Source: a virus | Direction: 5' to 3' (one strand) | DNA: 64,000 nucleotides | Virus record (IMG/VR): IMGVR_UViG_3300046781_000054 | Coordinates: 28,059 to 92,058 of that record | In this document: in pieces, positions 6,613 to 53,485 of the stretch | Layout of the letters: every line of letters starts with the position of its first letter | How positions within the stretch are numbered: position 1 is the first letter of the stretch | Program-made: the position numbers and the translations under genes | The notes under the pieces: model-generated | The model's input: only the letters and a program-made list of their open reading frames with translations | What the model was told of the DNA's origin: nothing | Databases searched by the model: none

Positions 6613-6798
6613 TCAGGCGGCGAACGTGTAGGCGGGGCGCAGGGCGCGGATGTGGGTGTCGAGCCAGGCCCGTTCGGATTCCTCCTGGGCACGGTGCCAG
6701 GCTTCGCGTTCCTCGTCGGTGAGGCTGCGCGGGTCGACGTCCAGGTCCTCAAGCACGGTGGTGGCTCCGTCCGGTTGGTGCAGTGGATCGGTGATCAC
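6613..6798 (-). CDS. Small hypothetical protein
   Basis: Codon bias; start uncertain. Confidence 0.5.
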   Translation of the reverse strand: MITDPLHQPDGATTVLEDLDVDPRSLTDEEREAWHRAQEESERAWLDTHIRALRPAYTFAA

Positions 6799-6836
6799 AG
6801 TGCCTGAGATTTAGGGAACTGTTCCCTCCGCTCCGC

Positions 6837-7619
6837 TCAGGCGACGTCGAAGGCGCGTCGTGCGGGAGCCGGCCCGTTCTTCTCCTCGCCGCGCTTGAAC
6901 GCGAGGGCGGCCTGGCGGGCGCGTTCGCTCTCCTTGTGGCGTTGGGCCGCCTCGTCGGGTGTCTCCAGCTGGCGGACGGTGGTGTCGCCGGGTAGACGGT
7001 GGGCGCGCAGGGCGGCGTCCTGGCGGGCGATCGCGGCGATGAGGTAGGGGTCGGTGGGTCCGTGTTCGGGCCGGTGGTCGAGGTGGGCCTGGAGGGCGTG
7101 CTGGTAGCCGGGTGAGGCGGTCGCGCGGGTCTTCGGTTCCGGCAGAACCGGTGCCGCTGCCGAGACGTCGGGCCGCTCGTCCGCTGCGGGCGTGGCGCCT
7201 GGCGGGAGGATCCGCAGAGCGCGGACCACGCTCTGCCCGGTCTTCTCCCAGATTCGGGCGAGGATCTGCCGCTGGAACATCCGTAGCTGTGTCGCGTACG
7301 CGGCGGAGAGGGGCTGCAGGTACAGGATGCCGGTGTCGTGGGTGAAGCGGGTCGCGTACACCTTGTCTGCAAGCTCGGGGGCGATCTGCGGCCACTGGTC
7401 GAGGATGCTGCCGCCTTCCTCGGGTGGTTCCCAGCCGCGTTCGTCCATCATCTGTCCGATGACTGCGGACAGGCCTTGCGGGTCGCGGCGGCCGGTGCGC
7501 TGCACGGTCTTCCGGGTGGGCTTCTTCGCCTTGGTGGTCGGCTGGGTTTTTGCGTGGGCGCGGGCGGCGGCGAGTGCGGCGCGGGCCAGGTCGGCGCCGG
7601 AGGGTGTGGGTTCGCTCAT
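6837..7619 (-). CDS. dciA: DciA (DUF721)-family helicase-loader-like protein with C-terminal extension
   Basis: DLARAALAAAR...RDPQGL...RGW...W-PQIA...SAAYATQLR...ILARI pattern of actinobacterial DciA; ATGA overlap with rep stop. Confidence 0.8.
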   Translation of the reverse strand: MSEPTPSGADLARAALAAARAHAKTQPTTKAKKPTRKTVQRTGRRDPQGLSAVIGQMMDERGWEPPEEGGSILDQWPQIAPELADKVYATRFTHDTGILYLQPLSAAYATQLRMFQRQILARIWEKTGQSVVRALRILPPGATPAADERPDVSAAAPVLPEPKTRATASPGYQHALQAHLDHRPEHGPTDPYLIAAIARQDAALRAHRLPGDTTVRQLETPDEAAQRHKESERARQAALAFKRGEEKNGPAPARRAFDVA

Positions 7620-8908
7620 GCAGGGCTCCCGTTGAGGAAGGCGAGGATGTCGGCCTCGGCGCCCGACTCGCTGCTGGCGGCGTCGGGGGTGTGGTTGAGG
7701 TTGTCCCAGCCTCGCGCCCGGCACGTGGCCTCGTAGGCGGCCTCTCCCTGCCGCAGCGCGGCCATGAGGTCGAGTCGGACACCGACGGGGGCAGTGAACG
7801 CGCCGGCGGCCGGGTTCTCCAGCTCAAACCGTTCGGCAGCAGCGGCCTGCAGGTCGGCGTGCTTCTGCTGGGCCTCGAGGGCGGTGGAGATGTAGGCGGC
7901 AGGGTTGCGGGGCCGCCAGTTGCCGCCGGGGTGCATTCCGTGGAGGTATTCGGCGATGCCGTACGCGTCGAGGCCGCGGTCGATGAGCGGCCGCAGCGCG
8001 AAGGCGAGTCGGCGCAGGCCCTCCGTCTGGGTCCAGTTCACCAGGGGCCTCACCTGCCGGGCGACCGTCACGTCCTTGGCGACCTGGAGGGGGCTGCGCC
8101 TCCCGCTGCTGCGGTTCTTCTTCGACGACTGGGTGGGGGACTGGCTGCTGCGCGCCGCCTGCGGGGTGTAGTTGCTCTTTTCCCCACCCTCTACCTTCAG
8201 CTTTCCCTCTTCTCTAACCAGGGTGAGGGAAGGGGTGACACGGCCCCCATCGGCACCCGAGTTATCCACAGGGGTCGTTTGGGCCGGGATCCGGGGTCGC
8301 TGGTCGACGATGATGCGGGCCTCGTAGCCCTCACCGACGACCTGGTGCCCCATCGCGTGGTCGTACACGGGCGGGGTGACCGCCCCGTACACGGTGGCGG
8401 TGCCTGCGTAGCCGCCCAGGCCGAGCGTGCGGCGGATGTTGGCGCGGGTGCCGTGCTCGACCCACACGAGGGCCCCGAGCTCGCGGAGGTAGGCGATGTG
8501 GCGCTGCAACTGGCGCAGGGACAGGCCGAGTCGGGCGGCGGTGTCGTGCTGGGCGTAGCGGACATGCCCGGTGTCGTAGTCCATGCGGTCGGCGAGGTCG
8601 TGGGCGACGCGTTGCGTGGTGGCGTTCGCGCGGGGGTGCAGGCCGGCTGCGATCAGCCATTCCACCGCGCGACGCCACCGCCGCGGGCCGCTGCGGCGCG
8701 ACTTGGTGGCGTGCACCTCCTGGCAGGCGCCGCGCACGAGAGCGACCTGACCTGCACTGTAATAGATCTTCTGTTCGAATTCGATGTTGGGGGCGTGTGT
8801 GTCGTAAGGGGGTTTGGTGCACTGGGTGTCACCCGGGCGCGGGAACATTCGTGAGGAATGGGGCGTGACGGGGCGCTCAAGCTGACAACTGGGGTGCGCG
8901 TACTGCAC
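7616..8908 (-). CDS. rep: Replication initiator protein (N-terminal winged HTH)
   Basis: HTH (TAARLGLSLRQLQRHIAYLRELGAL), internal DnaA box, position beside dciA/parAB; start GTG 8908 or ATG 8848. Confidence 0.7.
   Translation of the reverse strand: MQYAHPSCQLERPVTPHSSRMFPRPGDTQCTKPPYDTHAPNIEFEQKIYYSAGQVALVRGACQEVHATKSRRSGPRRWRRAVEWLIAAGLHPRANATTQRVAHDLADRMDYDTGHVRYAQHDTAARLGLSLRQLQRHIAYLRELGALVWVEHGTRANIRRTLGLGGYAGTATVYGAVTPPVYDHAMGHQVVGEGYEARIIVDQRPRIPAQTTPVDNSGADGGRVTPSLTLVREEGKLKVEGGEKSNYTPQAARSSQSPTQSSKKNRSSGRRSPLQVAKDVTVARQVRPLVNWTQTEGLRRLAFALRPLIDRGLDAYGIAEYLHGMHPGGNWRPRNPAAYISTALEAQQKHADLQAAAAERFELENPAAGAFTAPVGVRLDLMAALRQGEAAYEATCRARGWDNLNHTPDAASSESGAEADILAFLNGSPA
8165..8275. other. 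Candidate replication origin inside rep
   Basis: Perfect DnaA box TTATCCACA at 8262-8270 next to a pyrimidine-rich, lower-GC tract at 8171-8220. Confidence 0.55.
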
Positions 8909-8939
8909 TATGTACCTGCCTGGTTCCGATGGATCAGGG

Positions 8940-9160
8940 CATGAAAAGGCCCCGCTTCGGTGGTGCTGGTTCGGTGAGAACCTGAAAGATCGCTCAGCGG
9001 GTTGGCACCCGGTGGGCCTTAGCTCGTCCCTGGCAGGACGGGCCGTGATGTGAAGGCCGTGAGGCCGGACAGTGGGTGACACCACTGAACGGGCGTAAGC
9101 GGCCAGGCGGTTGAGGAAGACGCTCCCCGGCAAGGGAGCGGCAGGACCTCCCGCCGTAGA
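8940..9160 (-). promoter_or_regulatory. Structured rep leader / attenuator candidate
   Basis: Tandem short hairpins and a closing stem AAGGCCC/GGGCCTTTT just before rep. Confidence 0.5.
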
Positions 9161-9166
9161 TACGGG

Positions 9167-9379
9167 CTACGTCATCTGATCTCCCTCAATGGGCGAGGTC
9201 TGCCCCTGTGCCTGCTTGGCCAGGAAGTTGATGTGCTTGTCGATCGCACCCATCAGAAGGTCGATCTCCCACTGCAAGGCGGGGCTCATCCGGGTGTGGC
9301 AGCAGATGGTTGAGGCCACCGTCTCCCGCAACTCCTCGCGGGTCATCGGCACGTTGGACCCGGGGAGAAGGGCGCTCAT
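9167..9379 (-). CDS. Hypothetical protein
   Basis: ATGA coupling to upstream gene. Confidence 0.65.
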   Translation of the reverse strand: MSALLPGSNVPMTREELRETVASTICCHTRMSPALQWEIDLLMGAIDKHINFLAKQAQGQTSPIEGDQMT

Positions 9380-9813
9380 CGCTCGCCCCCCGACCGCCGT
9401 GCGTTTACCCGGGCCCGCTCGTACCGCTCATGGGCCTCAAGGAACGCCGCCTCCGAGCCACCCATGTCCGGGTGCGCGGCCCGCATAGCCGCCTTCAACT
9501 GGCCCAAGTCCGGCGCGGGCGCGTAGACCTCAAGCACGGGCGGCTGGAGGTACAGACGTGCATCCGCCTCCCACCACCCGGCCGACTTCCGCCAGATCTC
9601 GCCAGCAGCCTCGATCTCGTGCCGATCGATGTAGCCGACGTCGCCACGGCCTTCCGAGCGGATGTAGTAGATGCGCTTCGGCGTCTTCCTGGTGACGCGG
9701 AAGGTAATGACCGTCTTCGGCACGTAGAAGCGACTGTCGTCGCCTTCGTGGTGCTCGGCCTGGATGGCATACAGGTACTCCACGGCGAGGAGGTCCCCGC
9801 CCTGGGTGCTCAT
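9376..9813 (-). CDS. Hypothetical protein with C-terminal J-domain-like segment
   Basis: LKAAMRAAHPDMGGSEAAFLEAHERYE (HPD motif); start likely ATG 9813. Confidence 0.7.
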   Translation of the reverse strand: MSTQGGDLLAVEYLYAIQAEHHEGDDSRFYVPKTVITFRVTRKTPKRIYYIRSEGRGDVGYIDRHEIEAAGEIWRKSAGWWEADARLYLQPPVLEVYAPAPDLGQLKAAMRAAHPDMGGSEAAFLEAHERYERARVNARRSGGER

Positions 9814-9970
9814 GCGACGGTCGGGGTAGTGGTGACAGGGCCCTCGCTCAACGCCGAACATGTGATGTTCACGGCGGAGACTGAGGTCCCACTGTCTGAT
9901 CGCCCGGATGTCCGGGTACGCTTCGCCATAGAGCTGGCACCTTCATTCGTTCGCACGGTGTGGTGTCGGC

Positions 9971-10033
9971 GGGCCCCGCGTCCAGATGCTTCCAACATCA
10001 GGACTGCCGTTGAATCGGCGAGCGGGGCCTTTT
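9971..10033 (+). ncRNA. Branched stem-loop with U-tract, candidate 3' end of an antisense RNA
   Basis: Stem GGGCCCCGC/GCGGGGCCT-TTT enclosing hairpins GATG-CTTCCAA-CATC and GCCG-TTGAAT-CGGC. Confidence 0.45.
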
Positions 10034-10090
10034 GACTTGTCTGGGAGACCGGCCGACCGCACATCTGAGTAGCCGTCTGGTCCATAGCGC

Positions 10091-10121
10091 AGTCTATCGG
10101 TTGGGGCTGACAATGTTCCCC
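10091..10121 (-). promoter_or_regulatory. Element-specific promoter GGGGAACA-N17-TAGACT
   Basis: Member of the 8-copy motif family; best -10 match. Confidence 0.7.
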
Positions 10122-10164
10122 GTGACTCGCGATCGTGTCGTACGTCCCGCGCGGCACCCTTGAC

Positions 10165-10593
10165 TCACCCCTCATCGTGGCCCCGCCCCTCCGACTCACC
10201 GTCAGCCGGATGCTCCGACAAGGCCGTTGCCATCGACCGGGCCACCATTCCCGCCATCGCCGAATGGCCGGCCGCCGCCAACTCCCCGCGGAGCCGCTCC
10301 AGCTGGTCCCGGTAGAAGTACGGGCGGGCCGCCAGCCTGGCCGTGTACATCCCCACAACGAACGCCCGCTCCCACACCTCCTGCACCACCACCGGATCCG
10401 CCTCCGGGAACAAATCCATCGGCAGCTTCGACGGCCGGCCCGCCGTCTCCAGCTCGGCGGCCGCGATCAGCCCCGCCAGATGCTGGGCCGTCATCACCGC
10501 CCGCCCCGACAGGCTCAGGTCCGTCCGTGACGTCTCGAACGCCGCCAGGTCCTGCTCGGCGGCCGCGGTCTCGGGAGTGTGGAACGTGGTCAC
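10165..10593 (-). CDS. Hypothetical protein
   Basis: GTGA coupling with the whiB-like gene; GGAGG RBS. Confidence 0.75.
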   Translation of the reverse strand: MTTFHTPETAAAEQDLAAFETSRTDLSLSGRAVMTAQHLAGLIAAAELETAGRPSKLPMDLFPEADPVVVQEVWERAFVVGMYTARLAARPYFYRDQLERLRGELAAAGHSAMAGMVARSMATALSEHPADGESEGRGHDEG

Positions 10594-11423
10594 GCGGCAG
10601 CCTCCACAGGCGTGGTCGGAACAGACGGAGAGGGGAACACAGTCACCGAACCGCCCGGGCGGGCCTCGGCGTCGAACAGATCCAGCTCAAGCTGGCCGGC
10701 GATCGCAGCGAACTTCGACGGCTTCGGACGCACACCCCGCGTCCGCGACGGGCCGGCCGGACGCGTCGGCTCGTCCTCCCGCACCCGCGACAGCGCGGGC
10801 ACCGTGCCGTCATCCCGGCGCACCACCCACCCCGGCGCCAGCAGCCCCCGCGCGGCCGCCTTGTCGATCAGCTCGTTCCGCGTCGCGGTCTTCGACAGAC
10901 CGAGCTTGTCCAGGAGCCGGGACCGCTGCCAGTTCGTCGTCCGCAGCGTCAAACCGGTCACCCGGGCTATCACCCGCACATCCGCGTACTTCACGACCGC
11001 CCGCAGCACCTTCTGTGTCTGCTCCGTCGCGAAGTACTCATCCGGGGCCTCCCGCGGCACCTGCCTGCTCCGCGCCGCAATGACCTCCCTCGACCGGTCC
11101 AGGGCGCGCATCCCGCCGAGGATGCCCTCCCGCTCGATCAACTGCCCGTCCGCGCCCACCGCCCGGCCGACCGCCAGGCACTGCACCATCACCGGACACG
11201 ACACACAGACGTCGATGGCGGCCTCCTCGCGGGCCCGGCGCACCGCCTGCGGCTCACCTCCGTCCCCGGACTGTGCAGTCCACGCATCCACCGACAGGCC
11301 CGGATTCCCCGCCGCACGCCGCGGATCATCCACATCGGGGGCGCACCCGCGGTACCGGTAGTGCGGATGCCAGGTCAACGCCTCATACGGCGACTTCGGC
11401 AACATCGTCTTGCTCGGGCTCAC
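10590..11423 (-). CDS. whiB: WhiB-family Fe-S transcription factor fused to a LuxR/sigma4-like HTH
   Basis: C-x(n)-CVSCPVMVQC...GILGG; downstream IARVTGLTLRTT...LLDKLGL...RNELI...RGLL; start GTG 11423. Confidence 0.8.
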   Translation of the reverse strand: MSPSKTMLPKSPYEALTWHPHYRYRGCAPDVDDPRRAAGNPGLSVDAWTAQSGDGGEPQAVRRAREEAAIDVCVSCPVMVQCLAVGRAVGADGQLIEREGILGGMRALDRSREVIAARSRQVPREAPDEYFATEQTQKVLRAVVKYADVRVIARVTGLTLRTTNWQRSRLLDKLGLSKTATRNELIDKAAARGLLAPGWVVRRDDGTVPALSRVREDEPTRPAGPSRTRGVRPKPSKFAAIAGQLELDLFDAEARPGGSVTVFPSPSVPTTPVEAAA

Positions 11424-11665
11424 TGGTGGCCCCCTTCCTGCACAGTGGACTGGCTCGTAGACGGGACCGGCCCGCCCGCCATAGCGGCGGCACGGGCCAG
11501 CTGAAGTTCGCGTTGATGGTCGGCGTGGACAACGTGGTCGACGAGCCGGCGCCCGGCCCGCTCCGCCCTCAGGTCCTGCTCGAGCGCGCCGACACGACGC
11601 ACCAGCCAGACGACAGCCCAGCCCGCGGCGAGGACCGTGAGACTGGCACGTATTCGGTGGGACAC
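11420..11665 (-). CDS. Small membrane-anchored hypothetical protein
   Basis: N-terminal hydrophobic helix; GTGA coupling. Confidence 0.6.
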   Translation of the reverse strand: MSHRIRASLTVLAAGWAVVWLVRRVGALEQDLRAERAGRRLVDHVVHADHQRELQLARAAAMAGGPVPSTSQSTVQEGGHQ

Positions 11666-11707
11666 GGGTCCTCACCACCTCTCTATCTGGGGAAGGGAAT
11701 TCGGGGG

Positions 11708-12037
11708 TCACTGCTGCGGCTTGGACGCCTTCAAGAACTCCTCGAAGGCGATCAGTTCCGCCTCGTGCACGACCGGCTCGCCCGCGTCAGCCGCTGCCTG
11801 CAACTGGGCGCGGTGGGCTGCCTCCCACGCGACCTCGCCCTCGAGAGCCGCCTCGTCGGCGCGCAGTCGGTCGATTGCCTGCTCCACGCTTCCCGGATAC
11901 ACATCCGTCGGGAGTACTCCGCGGGCCCGGGCACGACGCCGGCGCCACGCGGCGAACGCACCGACCAGCCACACCCCGCACAGGATGAAGACGGTGCCGA
12001 GGGCGATGAGCCAGTTGTAGAAGGTGTCTTCGTTCAC
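11708..12037 (-). CDS. Membrane-anchored hypothetical protein
   Basis: GTG 12037 after GAGG RBS; TM helix. Confidence 0.65.
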   Translation of the reverse strand: MNEDTFYNWLIALGTVFILCGVWLVGAFAAWRRRRARARGVLPTDVYPGSVEQAIDRLRADEAALEGEVAWEAAHRAQLQAAADAGEPVVHEAELIAFEEFLKASKPQQ

Positions 12038-12146
12038 GGCGGACCTCGTTTCAGGCAAGGGGGAATCCCCGACTGGCGAACTGGTGAGGTGAAGCGGGTC
12101 CGGTGGGGCGGACGGGCGGGGCACTCAGACGTCCCCGCCAGGGGTG

Positions 12147-14452: not shown

Positions 14453-14525
14453 GAGGGTTTCTCCTATGGGGTTATGCAGGGTGCGGGGCGGCCCACCAAT
14501 CCGGGGGCCGGCATCCCGCCCCCGA

Positions 14526-15485: not shown

Positions 15486-15496
15486 GCCATCATCCT

Positions 15497-21764: not shown

Positions 21765-22427
21765 TTAAGCGGGTGCCGGTGCGGTCTTCTCCCGGATGCG
21801 GCGGACGATGGTCGGACGGGCCACGCCGAACGAAGTGGCGAGGCTGCCGATCGACTCGCCGTCCCGGTGGCGGCGGCGGATCTCCTCGTCGGGCAGGTCC
21901 ATCCTGCGGTGTCCAAGCGGGACCTTGGCGCCGCCCTCGGCCAGGCGGCGGGAGATCAGGGCGGGAGCGACATCGAGGTCTGCCGCGATCTGCTGGATCT
22001 CCTGCCGCTCGTCGCGGTAGCGGCGGACGATCTCCTGTGTAGGGACCGGGAGTTCAATGCGGCGCGTGGTGCGGCGCTTCACGTCGTGGCGCTTCATCAC
22101 GTTGATGATCGTGGTTTTGCTGCACCCGTACCGTTCGCCGATGACACGTGTCGGCTCCCCTGCCCGGTAGCTGGCGATGACCTCTGCTGCGGGCAGGGTG
22201 CGCACGAGGGGTTCGTCGGCCGGAGGCAGTGTGTGGCGTCCTGATGTGGCGCCGCGGGCGACTCGGGAGACCTGGGCACGGCTGAGTCCGGTAGCGCGGA
22301 CGATCTCGGCTTGCCTTACGCCATCTCGGACGGCGGCGCGGATGGCGTCGTGCAGCGCACTGGTGGTTGGACGGTTGGCGGCCCGGCGAACTTCCTTGAG
22401 TGCGTCCGGAGTTGGGGCGTGGGTCAT
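21765..22427 (-). CDS. Protein with four tandem HTH motifs; probably leaderless
   Basis: Four Hin/TrpR-like HTH repeats; ATG 22427 lies 6 nt after the -10 of the motif promoter. Confidence 0.75.
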   Translation of the reverse strand: MTHAPTPDALKEVRRAANRPTTSALHDAIRAAVRDGVRQAEIVRATGLSRAQVSRVARGATSGRHTLPPADEPLVRTLPAAEVIASYRAGEPTRVIGERYGCSKTTIINVMKRHDVKRRTTRRIELPVPTQEIVRRYRDERQEIQQIAADLDVAPALISRRLAEGGAKVPLGHRRMDLPDEEIRRRHRDGESIGSLATSFGVARPTIVRRIREKTAPAPA

Positions 22428-22433
22428 GCGAAT

Positions 22434-22471
22434 AGCGTGGCACGGTTCCGCAGAAGTGTTCCCCCCGCTCC
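22434..22471 (-). promoter_or_regulatory. Element-specific promoter GGAGCGGGGGGAACA-N17-CACGCT
   Basis: 8-copy motif family. Confidence 0.65.
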
Positions 22472-29600: not shown

Positions 29601-29644
29601 AGAGTACGGGCGGCAGGGGCCAGGTGTTGCCCCTGCCGCCGTAC
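29601..29644 (-). promoter_or_regulatory. Terminator-like hairpin overlapping a variant promoter (GGGGCAACA-N18-TACTCT) upstream of lysis genes
   Basis: 16-bp inverted repeat 29604-29620/29629-29644. Confidence 0.55.
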
Positions 29645-29986: not shown

Positions 29987-32616
29987 GCGCCGGTCACCTG
30001 CCAGTTCACAGTAGTAGCGGTCGTGTTCTCTCGGTTGACCCATACGAGCGCCGACGAGGACGTCGTAGATGACATAGCGACACCAGTGACGCCGGCAGCC
30101 GATGGGGTTGCGTTGACGCGTGAGCCGGGCACGGTGGTCGCGGCGGTGGCGTAGCCGCGGAATGTGGTGCCTGCCAGCGTTGGGAAGGTCACCAGGGCGC
30201 TGGTGGGTGTGTTGGCGGCGCTGGGCGTGATACTCACGGAGCCGAACGCCATATTCCCGGCGGTCAGGATGCCGGTGAAGGCGACGTTGCCGTCCTTGTC
30301 GATGCGGAACTTTTCCACGCCGTTCTGCATGGCTCTCAGCAGGTAGCCGGTATGCGCGGCGAGAGCTTCGATGTAGAGGGCGCTGTTGTTGGAGGCGACG
30401 GGCAGGACTTGCAGGCGGCCGCCGTTGAGGGTGGCGAGGAGGGCTTCCACGATGAAAGACGTGTCCTGCGAGGGCGCGTCGGTGTTCTTGTAGTAGAGGC
30501 CTGCGGTGGTGGGGAAGAGACCTAGACGCCCGCCGATGATGGTGGCGGGGCTTCCGGTACGGAGGCGTTCGATGATGGCGGCGTCCCGGGCCAGATACTG
30601 GCGCCAGGCCATGTCGGTGTAGGAGCCGGATGTGAACTGCCCAGAGATCAATTCGAGGTTGGCGTCACCGATCGAGGGTTCTGTTACCTGCACGAAAGCC
30701 CTGTTGCTCTGGCCGGCATTCGAAAGAGAAATGTTGGGGTAGACGGCGTTCGGGTTCAGGGAGAGGAGCGCGCCGGAGGTTCCCTTGACGATGAAGGCGG
30801 CCCCGGACAGGTCTCCGACCGGGTTGCCGGACGCATCGTAGAAGATGATTCTGTTGGCGTTGCCCTCGTTGACCGTGATGCGCTGCCCGCTGGCTGCGGT
30901 CTGGATGACAGCCCCGGTGATCGTCATGCCGTTGATCGCGGTCGCGGACAGGGCTGCCGCCGTAATCGACCCGGCCATGATCTTGTCGGCGGTGATGGCG
31001 TTCGCTGCGATCTTGTCCGCAGTGACGGCCAGCGCATCGAGTTTCGCGGTCGTCACCGCGCCCGCGGCCAGCTTGTCGGTGTTCACCGCGCCGGACGCGA
31101 TCGTCGCCGTCTGCACCGCGCCCGCGATCAGCTTCGGCGTGCTGATCGCCCCATCAGCGATGTTCACGGTCTGCACGGCGCCAGTCTCGATGACCTCCAC
31201 TGTGACCATGTTGACCTCGGCGGTGCCCGTGCCTCCGTTGTAGTTCGCGTAGAAGAGCGGACTGATGAACCGGGCATTGGCATGCAGCGCACCGGGAGTG
31301 TTCGGGGAGGGGGCCGCGGTGGAGGTTCCGTTGCCGGTCGCGTAGCCCTTCAGGTATCCGGTGAACCGCTGGAACCCGGCGCCCGCGGTCAGGTTCTGGG
31401 AGGCGACGGCCACGTAGTGCTGCGAGCTGGCGGCGGACGCTCCAGTCGTGTTGACGAGGGTCGTCCCGTCCGCTGCGATGCCTGCGACACCGCAGAACAC
31501 GCGCTGCTGGGCGGTATCGCTGCCCGCAACGGTCTGCCGCACCGTGAAGCTGATCCGGTAGAGGACGTTGGGGTCGAACGGAATCAGGATGTCGGGCCGC
31601 CACGCTGCGGTCACGCCGCCGACGGCCCGCATGACGTAGCTGCCGGACTGCGCATCCGTCACCGCCACCGATGTCAGACCGGGTATTGCCACGGCGGTCG
31701 TGGTGCTCGTGCCCAGAGAGCGCCACTTCGCCGCTTCGGCGCCGGTGTCGTACAGCTTCTGCACGACGGATGCCGCGGTCGTGACCGACAACTGGCTGGT
31801 CGTCACCGACCCGGCGACAACCCGGTCGCCATTCAGCGTGCCGACAGCGATCCGGTCGCCCTGGATCGAGTTCGCCACCATTTTCGGAGTGGTGATCGCC
31901 CCGTCTGCGATCTTTGTCGACCCGACCGCACCAGTGGCGATCTTCGCTTGGGTGACGGCGTCGTCGGCGAGGATCAGAGAGTTGACCGCCCCCGCCTGGA
32001 TCTTCAGGTTGGTGACGGCGCCTGCCGCGATTTTCGCCTCGGTGACTGCGTCCGACGCCAGCTTCAGGGCGGTGATGGTGCCGTCCAGGACGTCGTTGGC
32101 GACGACCGGCGCCTTGCTGACAGGGCCGACCTGGTCCGATGGTGTGGACGCGGTGCCGGAGGTGTTGCGGGCCACCAGCCGCACGTACACGGGATCGTCG
32201 GTGGGGACGACAACAGTGGCGCCCTGCGCCGTCTCGATCGTGGACCGCAGCGTCTCCGGGAGCGGCGTGAACCCTGCCGCAGTGGAGGCGTGGACCTCGA
32301 TGCGGGACCAGTCCAGCGGCAGGACCGCCCCGTTCGCGAACAGGCCGTCCCAGGTGGCCTGCACGCCCCCGAGGTACGGCGCGACGGCCGGGGCCGAAGG
32401 CTGCGGCGGCGGGGGCCCGTTGACGGCCTGCACACCGACCGTGCCGTCGCCCTGGGCCCCGACGATCGCCCGCAGGCTTCCGGTGCTGTCGTTCACCTGG
32501 AGGGCGGCGTTCTCGATGCTGCCGCCGTGCGCGTACCGGGACCCCCGCTGTAGCTGTTCCACGGCGCGGCGCAGGCGGGCGACTTCCTCGGCCAGAGCAC
32601 TGTTGGTGGGCATCAC
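29983..32616 (-). CDS. Tail fibre / receptor-binding minor tail protein
   Basis: FnIII-like N-terminal part, 10-aa VTxxKIAxGA repeats, carbohydrate-binding-like insert. Confidence 0.85.
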   Translation of the reverse strand: MMPTNSALAEEVARLRRAVEQLQRGSRYAHGGSIENAALQVNDSTGSLRAIVGAQGDGTVGVQAVNGPPPPQPSAPAVAPYLGGVQATWDGLFANGAVLPLDWSRIEVHASTAAGFTPLPETLRSTIETAQGATVVVPTDDPVYVRLVARNTSGTASTPSDQVGPVSKAPVVANDVLDGTITALKLASDAVTEAKIAAGAVTNLKIQAGAVNSLILADDAVTQAKIATGAVGSTKIADGAITTPKMVANSIQGDRIAVGTLNGDRVVAGSVTTSQLSVTTAASVVQKLYDTGAEAAKWRSLGTSTTTAVAIPGLTSVAVTDAQSGSYVMRAVGGVTAAWRPDILIPFDPNVLYRISFTVRQTVAGSDTAQQRVFCGVAGIAADGTTLVNTTGASAASSQHYVAVASQNLTAGAGFQRFTGYLKGYATGNGTSTAAPSPNTPGALHANARFISPLFYANYNGGTGTAEVNMVTVEVIETGAVQTVNIADGAISTPKLIAGAVQTATIASGAVNTDKLAAGAVTTAKLDALAVTADKIAANAITADKIMAGSITAAALSATAINGMTITGAVIQTAASGQRITVNEGNANRIIFYDASGNPVGDLSGAAFIVKGTSGALLSLNPNAVYPNISLSNAGQSNRAFVQVTEPSIGDANLELISGQFTSGSYTDMAWRQYLARDAAIIERLRTGSPATIIGGRLGLFPTTAGLYYKNTDAPSQDTSFIVEALLATLNGGRLQVLPVASNNSALYIEALAAHTGYLLRAMQNGVEKFRIDKDGNVAFTGILTAGNMAFGSVSITPSAANTPTSALVTFPTLAGTTFRGYATAATTVPGSRVNATPSAAGVTGVAMSSTTSSSALVWVNRENTTATTVNWQVTGA

Positions 32617-42713: not shown

Positions 42714-42850
42714 TTCTGGGCCCCTTGGTCCCGGGGCCTTCGAGGTCTATGGGACCCGGCCCCTACACGTGTGGTGTGTGGGTGGCGGCCACCGAAGTGG
42801 TGGCGTCCGCGTGGGGTCCCGCCGCGGTGCGGTGATGCCTGACCCGTGGG

Positions 42851-43300
42851 TCAGGCGGATTGCAGGTCGAATGCGAACCTGCTGGCACTGGACATGATTC
42901 CATCTGGTGCGTCTGGTGTTCCCCCTGCTTCGATGTCCGGGCGGCGGGCGAGGATCCGGCCGCCGGGGACCGTGAGCGGGTGCAGCCACTGCCGGGTAAC
43001 CGGGTCGCGGCCGAGGAAGACTTCGCGGGCCGTGTCGGCGAGCCACTCCATCTGGTCCTGCGTTCCGTAGGAGTCCGGGTCGGACAGGTCCCGGCCGGAC
43101 ACGGAGCGGACCTGGTAGATGAGGGTGGCGTCCTCGTTGAGGTCGCTGTAGTAGGCGCCGGACGTCTGCCGGTCGATGTAGTCGAGGATGTAGTAGTGGC
43201 TCGGGCTGCCCTCGGGCATGGCGCCGCGGCCGACTGGTTTCCCGGATGCGGTCTCCAGCAGGGTGGCGAGCGCGTTGGTGACTTCCCGTGTGCTGATCAC
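42851..43300 (-). CDS. Tail terminator / head-tail completion protein
   Basis: GTGA coupling, position before major tail. Confidence 0.7.
   Translation of the reverse strand: MISTREVTNALATLLETASGKPVGRGAMPEGSPSHYYILDYIDRQTSGAYYSDLNEDATLIYQVRSVSGRDLSDPDSYGTQDQMEWLADTAREVFLGRDPVTRQWLHPLTVPGGRILARRPDIEAGGTPDAPDGIMSSASRFAFDLQSA
42894..42925 (-). promoter_or_regulatory. Element-specific promoter GGGGGAACA-N17-AATCAT upstream of major tail gene
   Basis: 8-copy motif family; embedded in the 3' end of the preceding CDS. Confidence 0.6.
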
Positions 43301-44781: not shown

Positions 44782-44953
44782 GTCGGTCCTCCTCAGCAAG
44801 TTCACGACCGTCCAGGGAGTTGTGGACACAGATCCAGTTGATGGACCCGTCCTCTGCCTTCTCGGGCCGTTCTTGGGGACCGCAGACGCACTCGGTGCCG
44901 ACCGCTTCGTGTTCGATCAGGTCGTTGATCGGTGTGACGTGCAGGGTCGTCAT
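44774..44953 (-). CDS. Small His/Cys protein (HVTPINDLIEH...CVCGP...VHNSLDGRE)
   Basis: ATGA coupling; motif typical of actinophage small proteins. Confidence 0.65.
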   Translation of the reverse strand: MTTLHVTPINDLIEHEAVGTECVCGPQERPEKAEDGSINWICVHNSLDGRELAEEDRHG

Positions 44954-46139: not shown

Positions 46140-46231
46140 GGGGGCTGTCCTCCGTCGCAGGGGGTTGGAAGGGTGGCGGGTGCGGGCCCGCCGTGTGGCG
46201 CCCCACCACGGGGGCGGGCCCGCACGCGCTC

Positions 46232-46543
46232 TCAGTCGCCGCCGTTGCCCTCGTCGGCGGCGTCCCGGCCCCGGGCCGGCTTGCTGGCCGCGCTCTTGCG
46301 AGGTGCGGCGGTCTTCTTGGCCGCCGAGGCGGCCTTGCCATCGGTCTTCGCCTCGTCGGCGGCTTCCGTGGTGCTGCCGCTATCGGAGGTGTCGGCGAGC
46401 GTAGGCACCTCGCCGTTCTCCCAGCACGCCGGGTTGGTCACGAGCGCCGCGTATTCGGGTGCGGGCTCTTCTCCGGCGTGCAGGAGGACATCGCGGTGCT
46501 TGACCGGGTCGCGGACGAACACGGATCGCACGAGTCGGGGCAT
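46232..46543 (-). CDS. Small capsid-associated protein
   Basis: ATG 46543 directly after MCP; GEEP.PE.A..VTNP..W motif. Confidence 0.7.
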   Translation of the reverse strand: MPRLVRSVFVRDPVKHRDVLLHAGEEPAPEYAALVTNPACWENGEVPTLADTSDSGSTTEAADEAKTDGKAASAAKKTAAPRKSAASKPARGRDAADEGNGGD

Positions 46544-46548
46544 GGCGA

Positions 46549-47604: not shown

Positions 47605-47619
47605 GGTCGGTCTCCTGTC

Positions 47620-48366
47620 TTACCGGTAGTGGATGGTGACGCCGGGCGCGACGCTGGTGACGTCGGTCGGGTCGAAGGGGATCGGACACTTGTCGGCGTA
47701 GACCTCGCCGAACCACAGCAGCGCCCCGGACGTCTTGGTGGAGCCGGGCGCGAACATCGACTCGGTGGCGAGGAAGCCCTGAAGGACCTCGGTGCCGTCG
47801 GATGCGGTGGCGGCGCCGCCCGCAGTCGTGGTGGTGACGGTGACGGCGGGGCTGGTGCCGCCGGTCAGGCCGGACGCGGACGCGGTCATCTGCGGCTGGT
47901 CGTCGCCCATGAAGCGGCCCACGAAGGTGACCTGGACGGCGGTGCCGGGGTGCGGGCCGCCGGATACGGACACGTCACCGACGTTGATGTTCGACAGCGC
48001 CTCGAGGGCTGCCTTCACCTGCGCCGCGGTGGCGTTGTAGGGGATGCCGGCGGTGGTCTGCCCGGACCAGGTCAGCGTGTAGGTGCCGCCGGTCGGGGTG
48101 CCGGTCACGGTGACCGTCTGGACCTCGGACGTCGGCCCCGAGTAGGGGGCGAACATGCCGGTCGCGGTGACCTTGCCGAGCGGCAGGCCGGACTTGAGGA
48201 CGTTGCGGGGCTGCAGCAGGTTGCCGGCCTCGTAGTGGACGCCCGCGACGAACTTCGTCAGGTCCAGCCGGATCGTGTTGGTGTCGTTGGTTCCCACGAG
48301 GGAGGCGAGCCACGGCCGTTCGGCGGTGGCTTCCTCGCTCGTACGCATGGGCTGGAAGTCGTTCAC
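47620..48366 (-). CDS. Head decoration protein with inserted accessory domain
   Basis: LKSGLPLGKVTATG.FAPY...DGTEVL.GFL split by an EVQTVT domain. Confidence 0.8.
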   Translation of the reverse strand: MNDFQPMRTSEEATAERPWLASLVGTNDTNTIRLDLTKFVAGVHYEAGNLLQPRNVLKSGLPLGKVTATGMFAPYSGPTSEVQTVTVTGTPTGGTYTLTWSGQTTAGIPYNATAAQVKAALEALSNINVGDVSVSGGPHPGTAVQVTFVGRFMGDDQPQMTASASGLTGGTSPAVTVTTTTAGGAATASDGTEVLQGFLATESMFAPGSTKTSGALLWFGEVYADKCPIPFDPTDVTSVAPGVTIHYR

Positions 48367-48467
48367 GGCCCTCTCCTTGGGGTGATGACGGTGCTGAAAG
48401 GCGGCACCGTTTCCGGCGCGTCCACGTGGGAGAGGTCGTGGTCCCAGGTCGTGCGGATGGTGCAGGG

Positions 48468-49265
48468 TCAGGCGTCGGCGGCGATCTTTCCGCGGCGCTT
48501 GAGCATGGCGAGGCCCCGCTCGCCGGGCTTGGGCTGGTTGGCGCCCGGGCGGGGGATGCCGGTGCCGGGCATCCCGGACGGTGCTGGCGGGACGGCGCCC
48601 GGGGCGGGGCTCTGGGCGCCGCCGAACATCTCGGCGCGGCGGCCCTTGAGTTCCTCGGCCGCGGTGGTGATGTCGTCGTCGGACGCGTCGTCAGTGACCC
48701 GGATCAGGGCGGCGGCGTCATCGAGGTCGGCGCCGGTCGCGCCGAGGGACACCAGGACGGCCCGGACTTTGGTGTCGCGTTCGCGCTGGGCGGCGGCGGC
48801 CTCGCGCTGCTCGGCCTGGGTGACGCGGGCGGCCAGGTCGTTCTCCTGCTGGGCGAGGGCTTCGGCGCGGCGCTCGTCCTCGCTGAGCTTGGCCTTGCGG
48901 GCCTCGTCGGCCTGCTTGAACATCTTGCCGAAGGCGGACGGGTCGAACGTGTCGAGGTTGAAGTCCTGAATGCCGGCGGCTTCGGCTATCTCGCGGATCG
49001 CGGCGTGCCGTCCGGCGCGGCGTTCCTTGGCCATGTTCTGGCCGAACCGCTCCTGGGTGATGATGACGCCGTTCTCGTCGCGGAGGGGTTCGACGGCGGG
49101 CGGGTTCTTCTGCGCCTGCGCGGCCACATCCGCCGGGGACGGCTGGGCAGGCGGCTGCGGGTCGCCGCCGTCGTTGTAGAACACCGGGGAGAAGACACCG
49201 GTGGGGTACGGGTGGGCCCAGCCGGCGTGGCCGGCACGGGCGGAGTGCTGCGCGGGGCGACGCAT
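48468..49265 (-). CDS. Capsid scaffolding protein
   Basis: GGAGG RBS, ATG 49265; charged coiled coil between portal and capsid. Confidence 0.8.
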   Translation of the reverse strand: MRRPAQHSARAGHAGWAHPYPTGVFSPVFYNDGGDPQPPAQPSPADVAAQAQKNPPAVEPLRDENGVIITQERFGQNMAKERRAGRHAAIREIAEAAGIQDFNLDTFDPSAFGKMFKQADEARKAKLSEDERRAEALAQQENDLAARVTQAEQREAAAAQRERDTKVRAVLVSLGATGADLDDAAALIRVTDDASDDDITTAAEELKGRRAEMFGGAQSPAPGAVPPAPSGMPGTGIPRPGANQPKPGERGLAMLKRRGKIAADA

Positions 49266-49302
49266 CTGTCCAAGTCCTCCCAGACTCGTAGTGCAACTTC
49301 CA

Positions 49303-49359
49303 GGCCCCGCGCCTAGATCCAAGTTCAGCACAGATCTCACGATGTGTTCCCCCCGCTCC
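49303..49359 (-). promoter_or_regulatory. Late promoter plus conserved leader AGGCGCGGGGCC (scaffold/capsid)
   Basis: GGAGCGGGGGGAACA-N17-TGAACT-N7-AGGCGCGGGGCC. Confidence 0.75.
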
Positions 49360-51214
49360 CCTGCGCCGGGTCTTCCTCCGTCGCGGGGGAGGCGGTCGGG
49401 TCGGTTGCGGGCAGGTTCGGGGTGGGCGGTGTCGGGTCGGGGTTGACGTCAATGCCGAGGAAGTCGCCGACCGCACCGGTATCACCGGTGGCGTCGGCGA
49501 GGGCGCGGGCCTGCTCGAACTGGCGGGACTGGATCCGTTCGATCTCTTCGCCGATGTCGTCGACGGGGAACCCGACGGTGGTGAGCATGCGGATGGCGGT
49601 CTCCAGCGACATGACGCCGTCCTTGACGGCGGCGCGCACCATGTCCAGGGTGGCGGCCTTGTCGGTGGGCTTGTAGGTGCCCCACACGAGGTCGACGTCG
49701 ACGACCGGCCCGGTCCAGTCGGGGTGCTGGCCGGCCTGGTAGAGGCGCTGCACCATCTTGAACAGCAGCTGGTACTTGTGGTCGCGGGCCAGGTGCAGGG
49801 AGTCGAGCAGCGGGTCCATCGGCCCGTAGGACAGTTCGATGGAGAACCCGGACGGCGCCTTGGTCGGGTCGAGGGTGCCGAGCGCGACGGCGGGCATCCG
49901 CCCGTTCACGGAGAGCCGGTCGAGGAGTTCGGCGGTCTTGTTGCGGAGCTCGGCGAGCATCGGGGACGTGTCGAGGGGGATGAGGTTGCCGCCCTGGCCG
50001 AGTTCGAGCATCAGTCCCGGTTCGATGTGCATGCGCCGCTCGCCGCGCCGTGTTTTGTTCTCCGGGTTGATGACGCCGATCATCGGTGATCCGGTCGTCG
50101 CGGAGGCGAGGCTGGAGTCGGTGTCCGTTCCGGCGATCTCGTCGAACAGTTGCATCAGCAGCGACAGTGACGACTCGCCCCAGTGCCCGTCCTCCGGGAC
50201 CGTGTTGGGGACGTGGACGACGGGGAGGAAGTCCAGCTGCAGGTCCAGGTGGTCGAGGACTTCGCCGTCGGGCCGGGTGATGAACCGCGCGTACCGGTAG
50301 TCGAGGTTGTAGACGTCCTGATCGGCTTTGATGTCGTCCAGGTCCCACTCGGCGTCGGTGAGGTAGCAGGTGAGGGTGGACGGGGTGTCGTTCCACGGGT
50401 ACTGGCGGCTGATCTGCCAGGTCTCCGGGGTGTAGACGTCACCGCCGGTCAGGAGGGGGGTCTGGCCGTCGTCGGCGAGGGCGGGCACCCGGGCGGGCCG
50501 GTCGCCTGCTTCGGACAGGGTTCGGGTGCCGATGGGGGCGAGCTGGTAGGTGATGCGGCGCAGCTTGCCCTTGGTGCCGGTCTTCGGGTCGGGGTCGATC
50601 TCCCACGCGAAGTGCACGGTGGTCGGGTAGTCCGCGGAGTCGCCTGCAGCGTCGGGCAGGTCGGGGAAGTAGAAGCCGGGGTCGACGACGGACAGGCGGG
50701 GCCGCTGCTTGTCGGCGTCCCAGGCCAGCGTGTACACGCCGTCGCCCTCGCGGACGGTCTTACGTTCGTTTTGCTGCAGGCGCAGCGTGAACAGTTCCTT
50801 GCGGGCCCAGTCCCGTAGCCGTTCCTGGACCGCGGCGGCGTGCACGGCGTCGGCATCCGGGGTGGAGCCGTCGGCGGGTTCGGCGTCCTCGGCTCCCTTG
50901 GCGGTGATGGTCTGCTCGCGGCCGAGCAGGTGGGAGGTGAGGGCGGCGATCCACATGGCGGGGTCGCCGAACTCGCGGCGTTCGTCTGCGGTGGTGCCGT
51001 CCTGCAGAGAGGCGATCTCCCAGGCCTGGTTGTGGGCGTAGGCGGCGCACAGCGTGTAGGAGGCCAGCCTGCGGCGGTCGTGTTCGGGGACCCAGGTGCG
51101 CATGGCGGCGGGGAACGCTTCGCGGTTGGGCTTCTTGTACGCCGGATCGGCGAAGACCCGCTTGTAGTTCAGCGGACTCCACCGGTCGACGATGAGGCGA
51201 GGAAGACCCACCAC
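49337..51214 (-). CDS. Portal protein
   Basis: After terL; GDGVY, LPVVHVPN..HWGES, APSGFSI motifs. Confidence 0.88.
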   Translation of the reverse strand: MVGLPRLIVDRWSPLNYKRVFADPAYKKPNREAFPAAMRTWVPEHDRRRLASYTLCAAYAHNQAWEIASLQDGTTADERREFGDPAMWIAALTSHLLGREQTITAKGAEDAEPADGSTPDADAVHAAAVQERLRDWARKELFTLRLQQNERKTVREGDGVYTLAWDADKQRPRLSVVDPGFYFPDLPDAAGDSADYPTTVHFAWEIDPDPKTGTKGKLRRITYQLAPIGTRTLSEAGDRPARVPALADDGQTPLLTGGDVYTPETWQISRQYPWNDTPSTLTCYLTDAEWDLDDIKADQDVYNLDYRYARFITRPDGEVLDHLDLQLDFLPVVHVPNTVPEDGHWGESSLSLLMQLFDEIAGTDTDSSLASATTGSPMIGVINPENKTRRGERRMHIEPGLMLELGQGGNLIPLDTSPMLAELRNKTAELLDRLSVNGRMPAVALGTLDPTKAPSGFSIELSYGPMDPLLDSLHLARDHKYQLLFKMVQRLYQAGQHPDWTGPVVDVDLVWGTYKPTDKAATLDMVRAAVKDGVMSLETAIRMLTTVGFPVDDIGEEIERIQSRQFEQARALADATGDTGAVGDFLGIDVNPDPTPPTPNLPATDPTASPATEEDPAQGSGGNTS

Positions 51215-51237
51215 TGTTCCCTTCTGGAACTCTGTTC

Positions 51238-51286
51238 GGCCCCGCGCCTTTGATCAGGATAGGAGCAGCGGACCCGGGTGTTCCCC
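51238..51286 (-). promoter_or_regulatory. Late promoter plus conserved leader (portal)
   Basis: GGGGAACA-N17-TATCCT-N6-AGGCGCGGGGCC. Confidence 0.75.
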
Positions 51287-51296
51287 GGTGATGGGG

Positions 51297-52877
51297 TTAG
51301 CGGCGGCCGCGGGGGGTGCGGCGTTCGTAGGTGCCGTAGATGCCGTCGTCGCCGTCGAGTTCGGCGAGTTCGGTCAGGGCATGCACGCAGGAGTCCATGC
51401 GGTCCGGGGAGTCCAGGCCCGGCATCCAGGTGACCATCTGCCGTTCCAGGGCGTGGAAGACACCAACGTGGTGGACACGCTGCTGCTCATAGAGTTGGGC
51501 GATCGGCTCGGCCCGCAGCCGTTTTCCCTGCTTGGCGTTGACGGGGATGATCCGCGGCATCAGCCGGCCGTGGGTGACACCGCGGCGTTCGAGTTCCCGC
51601 CACGCCTGGGTGAGGACCTGGCTGGTCATGTCGCCGCCGTAGTTGGACTCCACGACGATCGCGTCGGCCTGCCATTCCAGGGCGAGGAGGCAGGCGGTGG
51701 TGCCCCATTCGTCGGCCCCCATGGCACCGGATTTGTCGTCCAAGACGTAGAACTCGTCCCGGATCTCGGGGTGCGTGTGCTCAGGCCCTGCGCTCTGGAC
51801 GCGGGCGGAGGCGGCGGCGGTGATGCCGACCTCGTCGTGGCCGCTGGTCGAGCCGCCGGCCGGGTCGACGGCGACGACGATGCGGTCCAGGTCGATGCCG
51901 CGCAGGGCCGCCGTGGATAGGCGGTTGGAGTCGATCCACGTCTGTTTCCACACGCCGCCCTCCAAGGGTCTGGGCTGCTGCTGGTAGAGGGACCACCACA
52001 CGCGTTCGCCGACGGACTTGCGGATGCGGGCGTAGTCGTCGGCGTTGTACCGGGACGGCCACAGGGCTTCGCCGGGCTGGCGGCCCAGCGGGTCGTCGGC
52101 GGTCAGTGCGATGGCGGGCAGGTCGATGACGATCCAGTCCTCCGGTTCTTCCTTCAGGAGCCGTCCGGACAGGTCGTCGTCGTCCCAGCGGGTGTTGACG
52201 AGGAGGCAGGATCCCTGCGGTTCGAGGCGGGTGAGGAGGACGGACTGCCACCAGTCCCAGACGCGTTCACGCTGGGTGGGTGATCCGGCGTCCTCGGAGC
52301 CCTTGAAGGGGTCGTCGACGACGGCGACGTGCGCGCCGCGGCCGGTGAGCGCGCCGCCGACACCGGCGGTGACCATGCCTCCTTCGTGGCCGTCGATGTC
52401 GAACCGGTTGGCGGCCTGGGAGCCGTACTTGAGGCTGATGCCGAGGGTTCCCGCGTTCTCGGTGATGGTGTTGCGGACCCAGCGGCCGTGGTCGTCGGCG
52501 AGGTGGGCGGCGTAGGAGGCGAGCATGAACCGGTGTTCGGGCTGTCGGCGCAGGTACCAGGCGGGCCCCCAGCGTGAGGTACGACGTGACTTCCCGGCGC
52601 GGGGCGGCATTGTGACCATCGCTCGGATGCGTTCCCCCGCGGCGATTCGTTGGTAGATCCGGTCGATGATGTCGAGGTGCGGGGCCTGCATCTCCCGCCC
52701 GCCGGTCAGCACGGTGGACAGGGCACCGGGGCTGCGGTCCATGGCCATGACGCGTTCGACGTGGGCCAGGCGCAGCCGCAGGTCGGGGGTGGCCCGGCGT
52801 GCGATGCGGCGGCGTTCCACGAGCGGCAGGGTCCGGTACCGGTCGAGGGCTTCCGCCTCGGGGTCAGTTGCTGTCAT
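51297..52877 (-). CDS. terL: Terminase large subunit
   Basis: MPPRAGKS Walker A, VVDDPFK, TRW, VAVDPA, ESNYGG, SPDRMD. Confidence 0.95.
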   Translation of the reverse strand: MTATDPEAEALDRYRTLPLVERRRIARRATPDLRLRLAHVERVMAMDRSPGALSTVLTGGREMQAPHLDIIDRIYQRIAAGERIRAMVTMPPRAGKSRRTSRWGPAWYLRRQPEHRFMLASYAAHLADDHGRWVRNTITENAGTLGISLKYGSQAANRFDIDGHEGGMVTAGVGGALTGRGAHVAVVDDPFKGSEDAGSPTQRERVWDWWQSVLLTRLEPQGSCLLVNTRWDDDDLSGRLLKEEPEDWIVIDLPAIALTADDPLGRQPGEALWPSRYNADDYARIRKSVGERVWWSLYQQQPRPLEGGVWKQTWIDSNRLSTAALRGIDLDRIVVAVDPAGGSTSGHDEVGITAAASARVQSAGPEHTHPEIRDEFYVLDDKSGAMGADEWGTTACLLALEWQADAIVVESNYGGDMTSQVLTQAWRELERRGVTHGRLMPRIIPVNAKQGKRLRAEPIAQLYEQQRVHHVGVFHALERQMVTWMPGLDSPDRMDSCVHALTELAELDGDDGIYGTYERRTPRGRR

Positions 52878-53400
52878 CGGGCGTGTGGTCGGTCCTGTCC
52901 GGGAGCCGGAAGTCGGTGGCGGGACCGGGCTCCCCCGCAGTGTTCATGAGGGTGGTGAGTTCGGGGAGGGTGCCGCCGAGCGGGATGATGCCGCCGTCCG
53001 GGCCGGACAGTTCGGCCTTGGTCGGCATGTCGAGGCCGTTCAGTTTCGCCCGGCGGTCCATGAGGCGCAGGACGGTGTCGACGGCCCGCATGTCGAGTTC
53101 CTCGCCGACGACGTTGCCGTCGCGGTCGAGGACGGGGCTGGGTTCGGTGGCGTGCGGCCACGCGGCCCGCAGGAGCGCGTCGAGGCGTTCGTTCTCCTGC
53201 TGCCGGTACACGGACACTTCGGCGGCTTCCTCGTCGCGGTTCAGCTCGAGGGCGCGCAGGAGGTCCTTGGAGGCGTCACCGCGGCTGGAGTAGCCGAGCT
53301 CTTCGGCGATCTTCTCGAACGTGGCGCCGGCGACGCGCATGCGGATCAGCTTGGCGCGGCGTTCGGCGGTGAGGGCTCGTTGGGCTTTGGAGGGTGGCAT
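52864..53400 (-). CDS. terS: Terminase small subunit
   Basis: N-terminal HTH (GATFEKIAEELGY), RRAKLNGLD, ELSGPDGG; overlaps terL start. Confidence 0.85.
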   Translation of the reverse strand: MPPSKAQRALTAERRAKLIRMRVAGATFEKIAEELGYSSRGDASKDLLRALELNRDEEAAEVSVYRQQENERLDALLRAAWPHATEPSPVLDRDGNVVGEELDMRAVDTVLRLMDRRAKLNGLDMPTKAELSGPDGGIIPLGGTLPELTTLMNTAGEPGPATDFRLPDRTDHTPDDSN

Positions 53401-53435
53401 GGCGGTCGGGGCTCCCGCTGTGTCGTTGTGGTCCA

Positions 53436-53485
53436 GGCCCCGCGCCTGTCACAGATGATCGCCGATTTTCGGTTGGGTGTTCCCC
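53436..53485 (-). promoter_or_regulatory. Late promoter plus conserved leader (terS)
   Basis: GGGGAACA-N17-GATCAT-N7-AGGCGCGGGGCC. Confidence 0.75.

Follow-up and report, generated by a model that had tools for sequence, protein, structure and literature searches.

A repeated two-part sequence that very probably marks real promoters of a special class recurs through the last 64 kb (positions 28059-92058) of the 92,058-bp virus record IMGVR_UViG_3300046781_000054; we refer to this whole 64,000-nucleotide stretch as the window. Judged by its sequence, the promoter is a hybrid, with a box like that of extracytoplasmic function (ECF) sigma factors at the -35 position and a group-1-like -10. The class is predicted to head terS/terL, the portal gene, the scaffold-capsid genes, the tail-tube gene, the lysis cassette, a leaderless regulator gene and a par-side operon. 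The reading we favor, to which we give an even chance, is that this is a genuine class conserved across the pZL12-like family, in which the principal sigma factor would read the -10 and an accessory protein the box. The packaging and head region is 72-84% identical to 31 Streptomyces plasmids (85-94 kb) and to phage ZL12, which identifies the 92-kb element, on the strength of that relationship, as a pZL12-like Streptomyces plasmid-prophage. The window has a G+C content of 69% and a majority of minus-strand genes, and no tRNA genes were detected in it.

A preliminary description of the window had listed eight copies of the motif, each a short G-rich box followed by a -10-like hexamer, and these proved to lie where it had placed them. 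TGTTCCCC begins on the plus strand at 10114, 22457, 42917, 49345, 51279 and 53478, and the variants TGTTCCCT and TGTTGCCC at 6820 and 29625; all eight hexamers, the 17-nt gap (18 at the lysis site) and the three extensions to GGAGCGG(G/A)GGGAACA are likewise correct. The box of the preliminary description is real, but it forms just the core of a longer box, aGCnGGGG(G/C)AAC(a)(c), that spans about 14 nt. Its statement that all copies sit on the minus strand holds for the eight window sites and merely mirrors gene orientation: two further copies of the composite lie beyond the window on the plus strand (genome 9052 and 15864), ahead of plus-strand genes, so the strand bias is that of the genes.

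Five of these sites belong to the late genes, and all five are conserved among relatives. The terS-side promoter (53455-53485, minus strand, as are all window sites below) consists of a box at 53478-53485 and the -10 GATCAT at 53455-53460; its box is kept in 21/21 distinct relatives, 18 of them exactly, with GATCAT 18 nt past GGGAAC. The portal promoter (51256-51286) has its box at 51279-51286 and the -10 TATCCT at 51256-51261; 24 of 30 distinct relatives carry an exact copy of this box, and the -10 in relatives has the form TAYNCT. The scaffold promoter (49322-49359) has an extended box, GGAGCGGGGGGAACA, at 49345-49359 in the last portal codons and the hexamer TGAACT at 49322-49327, and its box is exact in 25/28 distinct relatives. 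The relatives for these three sites came from 36 viral contigs fetched via portal homology alone (48-74% protein identity), and in those contigs all three promoters recur at the corresponding positions. The tail-tube promoter (42894-42924; box 42917-42924, -10 AATCAT 42894-42899) lies within the 3' end of the upstream gene. Among 89 distinct IMG/VR sequences, fetched via a 20-nt piece of the conserved leader that follows it, 84 have the 6-nt core exactly 18 nt before [ACG]ATCAT, and this gap is identical in all 84 box-carrying promoters. The lysis promoter (29601-29632; box GGGCAACA at 29625-29632, -10 TACTCT at 29601-29606) has a gap one nucleotide longer and lies upstream of the endolysin gene; five distinct relative genomes retain the box and TA[CG]NCT, G002 doing so at a neighboring box. 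As had also been noted, several copies fall inside the 3' end of the upstream coding sequence, those at 49352 and 42924 in its last 15 and 73 nt, respectively.

Pooling the five late classes with equal weight, and counting positions from GG[G/C]AAC, revealed how far the box extends upstream: A at -6 (60%), G at -5 (63%), C at -4 (95%), G at -2 (85%) and G at -1 (94%). The core tends to be followed by A and C. The core is separated from the -10 by 18 nt, equal to 17 nt when counted from the 8-mer of the preliminary description. Four of the five late classes retain A at -11 (position 2) and T at -7 (position 6) of the -10, and the hexamers fit the housekeeping type (TAnnnT), appearing as GATCAT in 21/21 terS promoters, as [ACG]ATCAT in 84/89 tail promoters and as TAYNCT at the portal and lysis promoters. 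No TTGACA-like -35 was present at 16-18 nt, the position being occupied by GG(G/C)AAC. The scaffold and tail boxes can be read as two G-rich half-sites, GGGGAGC or GGGAAGC and then GGGGAAC, and GAGC(R)(R)GGG(G/C)AAC recurs, in different relatives, at scaffold, par-side, 4xHTH (four helix-turn-helix [HTH] motifs), lysis, terS and leaderless promoters. The distance from box to start codon is variable, ranging from 37 to about 310 nt.

The composite is well above chance. In the window, TGTTCCCC has 7 matches (including one on the opposite strand) against 1.9 expected, and none of 100 shuffles reaches 7. Across the 92-kb element, GGG[GC]AAC-N17-19-nAnnnT occurs 11 times against 2.2 expected, a count reached in 0 of 200 order-2 Markov simulations, and the stricter GGGGAAC-N18-nAnnnT occurs 7 times against 0.3. 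The shuffles for the 8-mer and the Markov simulations for the composite bear out the motif on a point where the preliminary description had exposed itself to refutation, a frequency above background. The bare 7-mer GGGGAAC is not enriched in the element (38 copies, 34 expected); the signal is therefore the two-box composite and its placement. Of the exact 8-mers in the element, 8/10 are gene-oriented and lie in upstream zones, which cover 8.4% of strand positions. After gene calling in six family genomes (G000, G001, G002, G004, G005 and NZ_CP070261, the last carried by S. californicus FDAARGOS_1210), 57 of 208 boxes fell in upstream zones, against 8.4% expected (p ~9e-16, a value that overstates the significance because the six genomes are related and not independent). 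In the same genomes nAnnnT follows at 17-19 nt in 40/57 upstream-zone boxes versus 7/151 boxes elsewhere, and a de novo search for over-represented gene-oriented upstream 8-mers placed AGGGGGAA, AGGGGCAA, CAGGGGGA, GGGGGAAC, GGGGAACA and GGGGCAAC at the top. A stray exact copy of GGGGAACA at window positions 10632-10639 (plus strand), antisense within the gene for a WhiB-LuxR fusion protein and lacking a -10-like hexamer, is probably non-functional.

The predicted transcription start lies about 7 nt past the -10, and two features of the family are informative about this point. One is a leaderless geometry, seen in eight cases across family genomes, in which ATG or GTG lies 5-7 nt past the hexamer; seven of the eight open a reading frame with the high G+C content at third codon positions of real genes. 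As leaderless mRNAs need a start codon at just this distance, these cases provide independent support for the predicted start. The plus-strand copy at genome 15864, outside the window, is one such site: GGGGAAC-N18-GATCGT-N6-ATG heads a regulatory-region open reading frame of 90 amino acids, with a conserved counterpart in G001 (59176, minus strand). A second conserved leaderless pair, with the hexamer CAGACT, heads open reading frames of 243-253 amino acids in G001 and G005.

The other feature is a conserved element at the predicted +1. An invariant 12-mer, AGGCGCGGGGCC, lies there at the terS (53436-53447), portal (51238-51249) and scaffold (49303-49314) promoters, all on the minus strand, with GGCGCGGGGCC 7-8 nt past the hexamer at each. 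Within 384 kb of relatives the 11-mer has 88 copies on the gene strand versus 3 on the other, always 7-8 nt past the -10, and more than 120 viral stretches contain the box and 11-mer together. Conservation of GGCGCGGGGCC at the predicted +1 exceeds that of either promoter box. In some relatives (L012, L014 and L015) the reverse complement of the 11-mer is also found upstream of the portal -10, creating an inverted repeat around it. At two promoters of a distant relative (L041 2279 and 5644, plus strand), the 11-mer and a TAnnnT -10 occur without GGGAAC, and visual inspection shows a CACGCC-like stretch at -35 in both, which hints that the -35 box is the lineage-specific part.

Behind every late promoter lies a conserved leader. 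In the three leaders that begin with the 12-mer, the 5' end pairs over the start region, with weak fold z-scores (-0.7, -2.7 and -1.3). A complement of the 12-mer occurs in codons 3-5 of the scaffold gene and is not strictly kept in relatives. The leader of the tail-tube gene (42714-42893, minus strand; about 180 nt) is conserved and structured (fold z = -4.4), and more than 110 viral contigs share an exact 20-nt core of it. An Rfam scan of the window matched no family, the tail-tube leader included. The lysis promoter has a different conserved leader.

The remaining three window sites lie outside the late set. At the leaderless 4xHTH promoter (22428-22471; extended box 22457-22471, -10 CACGCT 22434-22439), the ATG at 22427 coincides with the predicted +1, 6 nt past the hexamer. 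Its upstream region has no alignable relatives among the plasmids and other relatives, and a similar box and spacer were found in G004 only. The par-side promoter (6797-6834) combines an extended box, GGAGCGGAGGGAACA, at 6820-6834 with the hexamer CACTGT at 6797-6802; an extended-box search located it just past the stop codon of the DciA gene in G001 and G005 and not in NZ_CP070261, so two of three alignable lineages have it. The preliminary description had named a motif search in relatives as a check; the motif recurs there at terS, portal, scaffold, tail tube and lysis and is lost at the J-domain/rep operon (10091-10121; box 10114-10121, -10 TAGACT 10091-10096), where G001, CP070261 and G005 conserve the -10 (TAGRCT) but have a GACAG-type -35 in place of the box. 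Membership of the J-domain/rep site in the class is doubtful.

Which factor might read the box? The preliminary description had seen no sigma factor gene in the window, and profile searches now extend this observation to the entire 92-kb element, in which Sigma70_r2, TIGR02937 and Sigma70_ECF match region-4-like HTHs only. Conservation of the box beyond a -35 hexamer, a housekeeping-like -10 and the lack of a sigma gene together fit an accessory factor. In the mechanism we propose, host RNA polymerase carrying the principal sigma would recognize the -10, and the box, which unmodified sigma region 4 would not be expected to read, would be recognized by an accessory protein. This protein would be made from a repressor-controlled early operon, giving a switch akin to sigma appropriation. 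A consensus scan found no canonical TTGACA/TATAAT-type site in the late block (20001-54200); the sole canonical-type match in the window (15576-15548), itself at chance level, fronts an early operon that runs from a ribbon-helix-helix gene to the WhiB-LuxR fusion gene downstream.

The best candidate for the accessory protein may be this WhiB-LuxR/GerE fusion (10590-11405, minus strand; 271 amino acids), which is present in 7/7 family genomes. Its WhiB half scores 24.4 bits against Pfam Whib, and its profile matches WhiB3, WhiB4, WhiB1 and WhiB7 chains; a sequence-only search of the PDB with the fusion gave no match. Alignment of 29 homologues showed that C21, C67, C70, C76 and G97-G98 are invariant and that a G[IV][LW]GG turn and a LuxR-like block are conserved, so that the fusion has the four Fe-S cysteines and the G[IV]WGG-type turn of the WhiB-like (Wbl) family. 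An AlphaFold2 model (pLDDT 81.6) matches GerE and the VraR C-terminal domain (TMt ~0.8), and in a fold search it also matches WhiB3 and WhiB1 bound to sigmaA region 4. All 29 aligned homologues end in a conserved ...GQLxL...LEAAA tail, which may be a protease tag comparable to the Ala-Ala termini of other short-lived Streptomyces regulators. Wbl proteins, including those of phages, bind sigmaA region 4 (PMC13013590, PMC6954389), and WhiB1 has been likened to AsiA of phage T4 (PMC6954389). We tentatively suggest, while regarding it as less likely than not, that the fusion is a sigma appropriator in one polypeptide: the Wbl half would clamp region 4 of the principal sigma, the LuxR half would supply an ECF-like -35 specificity (aGCnGGGGSAAC), host polymerase would be turned to the middle/late program, and the LEAAA tail would shorten the switch. 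Alternative candidates would be a stand-alone GerE-type protein and the 4xHTH protein. The former (121 amino acids) is encoded outside the window, at genome 20529-20894, and found in 4/5 distinct relative genomes at E < 1e-5, being missing in G002. The gene for the latter (21765-22427, minus strand) is among the targets of the class and provides a second regulator candidate within the window; the protein matches several HTH families, with weak matches to Mor/late-activator profiles.

Several observations weigh against a principal sigma acting with a phage-encoded accessory protein. The core of the box equals the -35 of the host ECF factor sigma-E, and the scaffold-class hexamer (T-n-n-n-C-T) lacks A at -11. 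LuxR-type domains usually bind repeats as dimers, and the box is not palindromic. The members of the class at the par side and in the regulatory region do not fit a purely late switch, and parAB must also work in the prophage state. The preliminary description had proposed a single lytic regulon, switched on together by a phage factor; the special promoter class is well supported, and the co-switched regulon in part only. In addition, a single scaffold-type cassette, 11-mer included, is present in each of two unrelated small phages, the 37.8-kb G008 (rated complete) and the 40-kb G007. Genes for WhiB, GerE and sigma region 2 are all missing from G008, and of these G007 encodes a plain WhiB alone. 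The G008 cassette (L183 1216-1368, minus strand) is intergenic, near a serine integrase gene; that of G007 (30724-30800) has two boxes back to back on opposite strands, and both front unrelated genes. The proteins that the element has in common with G007 and G008 are a single-stranded DNA-binding protein, a lysis-region coiled-coil membrane protein and tail pieces, with no regulator among them. Given cassettes without a candidate reader, either host factors suffice or the genes they front answer the activator of another element.

One way for host factors to suffice would be direct reading by a host ECF sigma of the sigma-E, cell-envelope-stress type, with the phage mimicking an ECF -35 and having no specificity factor of its own. 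Sigma-E targets in S. coelicolor consist of GG(G/C)AAC, 17 nt and then CGTCTT (PMC6767563), and the class has the same two core variants, GGGAAC and GGCAAC, as its -35 (PMC6767563). The lack of a sigma gene in the element and the occurrence of the cassette in phages without candidate regulators would both suit such a factor, and in the portal and lysis promoters of many relatives CGTA lies 16-17 nt past AAC. The G of this CGT varies, however (CCTA, CTTA, CATA), while the T-A and the final T are constant; what is conserved as the -10 is TA..CT or nATCAT and not CGT, and the terS, tail and scaffold classes contain no CGTC-like element, let alone CGTC(T). Basal ECF activity would moreover turn on lysis genes in lysogens. 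Sigma profile searches gave the element no cognate sigma gene of its own, and a host sigma may still serve. We consider direct ECF recognition unlikely but, given the two cassette-bearing phages, keep it as a live alternative.

We regard as unlikely, though likewise a live alternative, a scheme in which these are unassisted host promoters with a weak -35 typical of the family (GGAACA shares ACA with TTGACA), timing being set after initiation by the leaders, namely the +1 11-mer and the tail-tube and lysis leaders. The presence of a conserved leader behind each late promoter, the strong structure of the tail-tube leader (z = -4.4), the switching of the rep promoter between GGAACA and a GACA-type -35 among relatives and the presence of class members ahead of non-late genes are all in keeping with it. 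Yet it is GGG and AAC that are conserved rather than ACA, the base past AAC varying between A and C, and an unassisted -35 leaves unexplained the conservation that reaches 6 nt upstream of the hexamer. That the boxes are not promoter parts at all is highly improbable in our estimation; they would then be oriented sites for a repressor or other DNA-binding protein, in the manner of stoperators, or would have arisen as a side effect of coding constraints and G-rich ribosome-binding sites. Stoperators of the L5 type, repressor sites of Cluster A mycobacteriophages, are asymmetric, share one orientation and lie in or near intergenic gaps, and the motif too is asymmetric, has a single orientation relative to transcription and lies in or near such gaps; at genome 9289 and 82942, moreover, GGGGAAC is a ribosome-binding site 9-10 nt before an ATG. 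Nonetheless, there are just about 10 copies where stoperators would be many and bear no fixed relation to a -10, whereas here the -10 spacing is fixed in 84/84 box-carrying tail promoters. The leaderless geometry suits a promoter, start-codon distances range widely, from 37 to about 310 nt, and conservation persists in intergenic context.

The assisted hybrid promoter that we favor resembles several known systems. Like the middle promoters of T4 (a MotA box at -30 plus a sigma-70 -10, served by AsiA and MotA), it joins a housekeeping-type -10 to a foreign box that replaces the -35, and AsiA holds sigma region 4, as Wbl proteins do (PMC6954389). The box, host and proteins differ from those of T4, and here, by analogy, we propose that the sigma-binding and DNA-binding modules would reside in one polypeptide. 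With the sigma-E promoters of S. coelicolor (PMC6767563) the class shares an identical -35 core, including the G/C alternative, and similar spacing; unlike them, it has a -10 of the form nAnnnT (TAYNCT, nATCAT), a box extended upstream (aGCn) and no ECF gene in the element. WhiB7-type activation, in which a Wbl protein sits on sigmaA region 4 and an AT-hook beside the -35, similarly involves a Wbl domain joined to a DNA-binding module, but the module of the fusion is a LuxR/GerE four-helix domain and its proposed target is G-rich rather than AT-rich.

The late promoters of P1 (Lpa dependent), Mu (Mor/C) and P2/P4 (Ogr/Delta) have no normal -35, share an upstream box and depend on an activator made early. 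The present element is likewise temperate with a family of late promoters, and its 4xHTH protein has the weak Mor/late-activator match; the boxes of those phages, however, are dyad-symmetric and their activators unrelated, and here the late block contains several dispersed promoters, each followed by a conserved leader of its own. The start-associated sequences of Cluster K mycobacteriophages are also short conserved elements repeated at the heads of virion genes, but they lie at or after the RNA start beside the ribosome-binding site, whereas the box lies at -35 and at a variable distance from the start codon. A likeness between the reverse-complemented box and the PhoP PHO-box was dropped, its orientation and repeat period being wrong and a key position mismatched.

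Literature searches returned no description of this promoter class, and to our knowledge late transcription in Streptomyces phages and plasmid-prophages is essentially uncharted. The sites described here provide a precise model, with two boxes, a fixed spacing and a predicted +1, that holds in more than 100 viral contigs. Under this model, transcription of the element would split into a canonical, repressor-controlled early class and the hybrid class. If the fusion reads the box, phage Wbl proteins would gain a concrete function and sigma appropriation a new form; if a host ECF sigma does so, the late genes of the prophage would be tied to envelope stress. In either case, the cassette is a candidate inducible promoter part for Streptomyces engineering.

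As for the genes at these sites, the labels TerL, tail tube (Pfam), amidase-LysM endolysin, ParA, ParB and DciA were confirmed, as was that of the major head protein; the scaffold gene encodes a head scaffolding protein and the portal gene matches phrog_64. The label terS has its basis in position and an HTH-like N terminus, nothing more. The protein at this position (window 52864-53400, minus strand) matches phrog_645, labeled 'Rnase E' (E = 3e-37), a name that is probably misleading for an HTH-bearing small terminase-like protein. Adjoining the packaging genes on their upstream side, a gene at window positions 54210-54875 (minus strand) encodes a protein that has membrane segments at its N terminus and a restriction endonuclease domain of the Mrr type (Pfam Mrr_cat, 74 bits).

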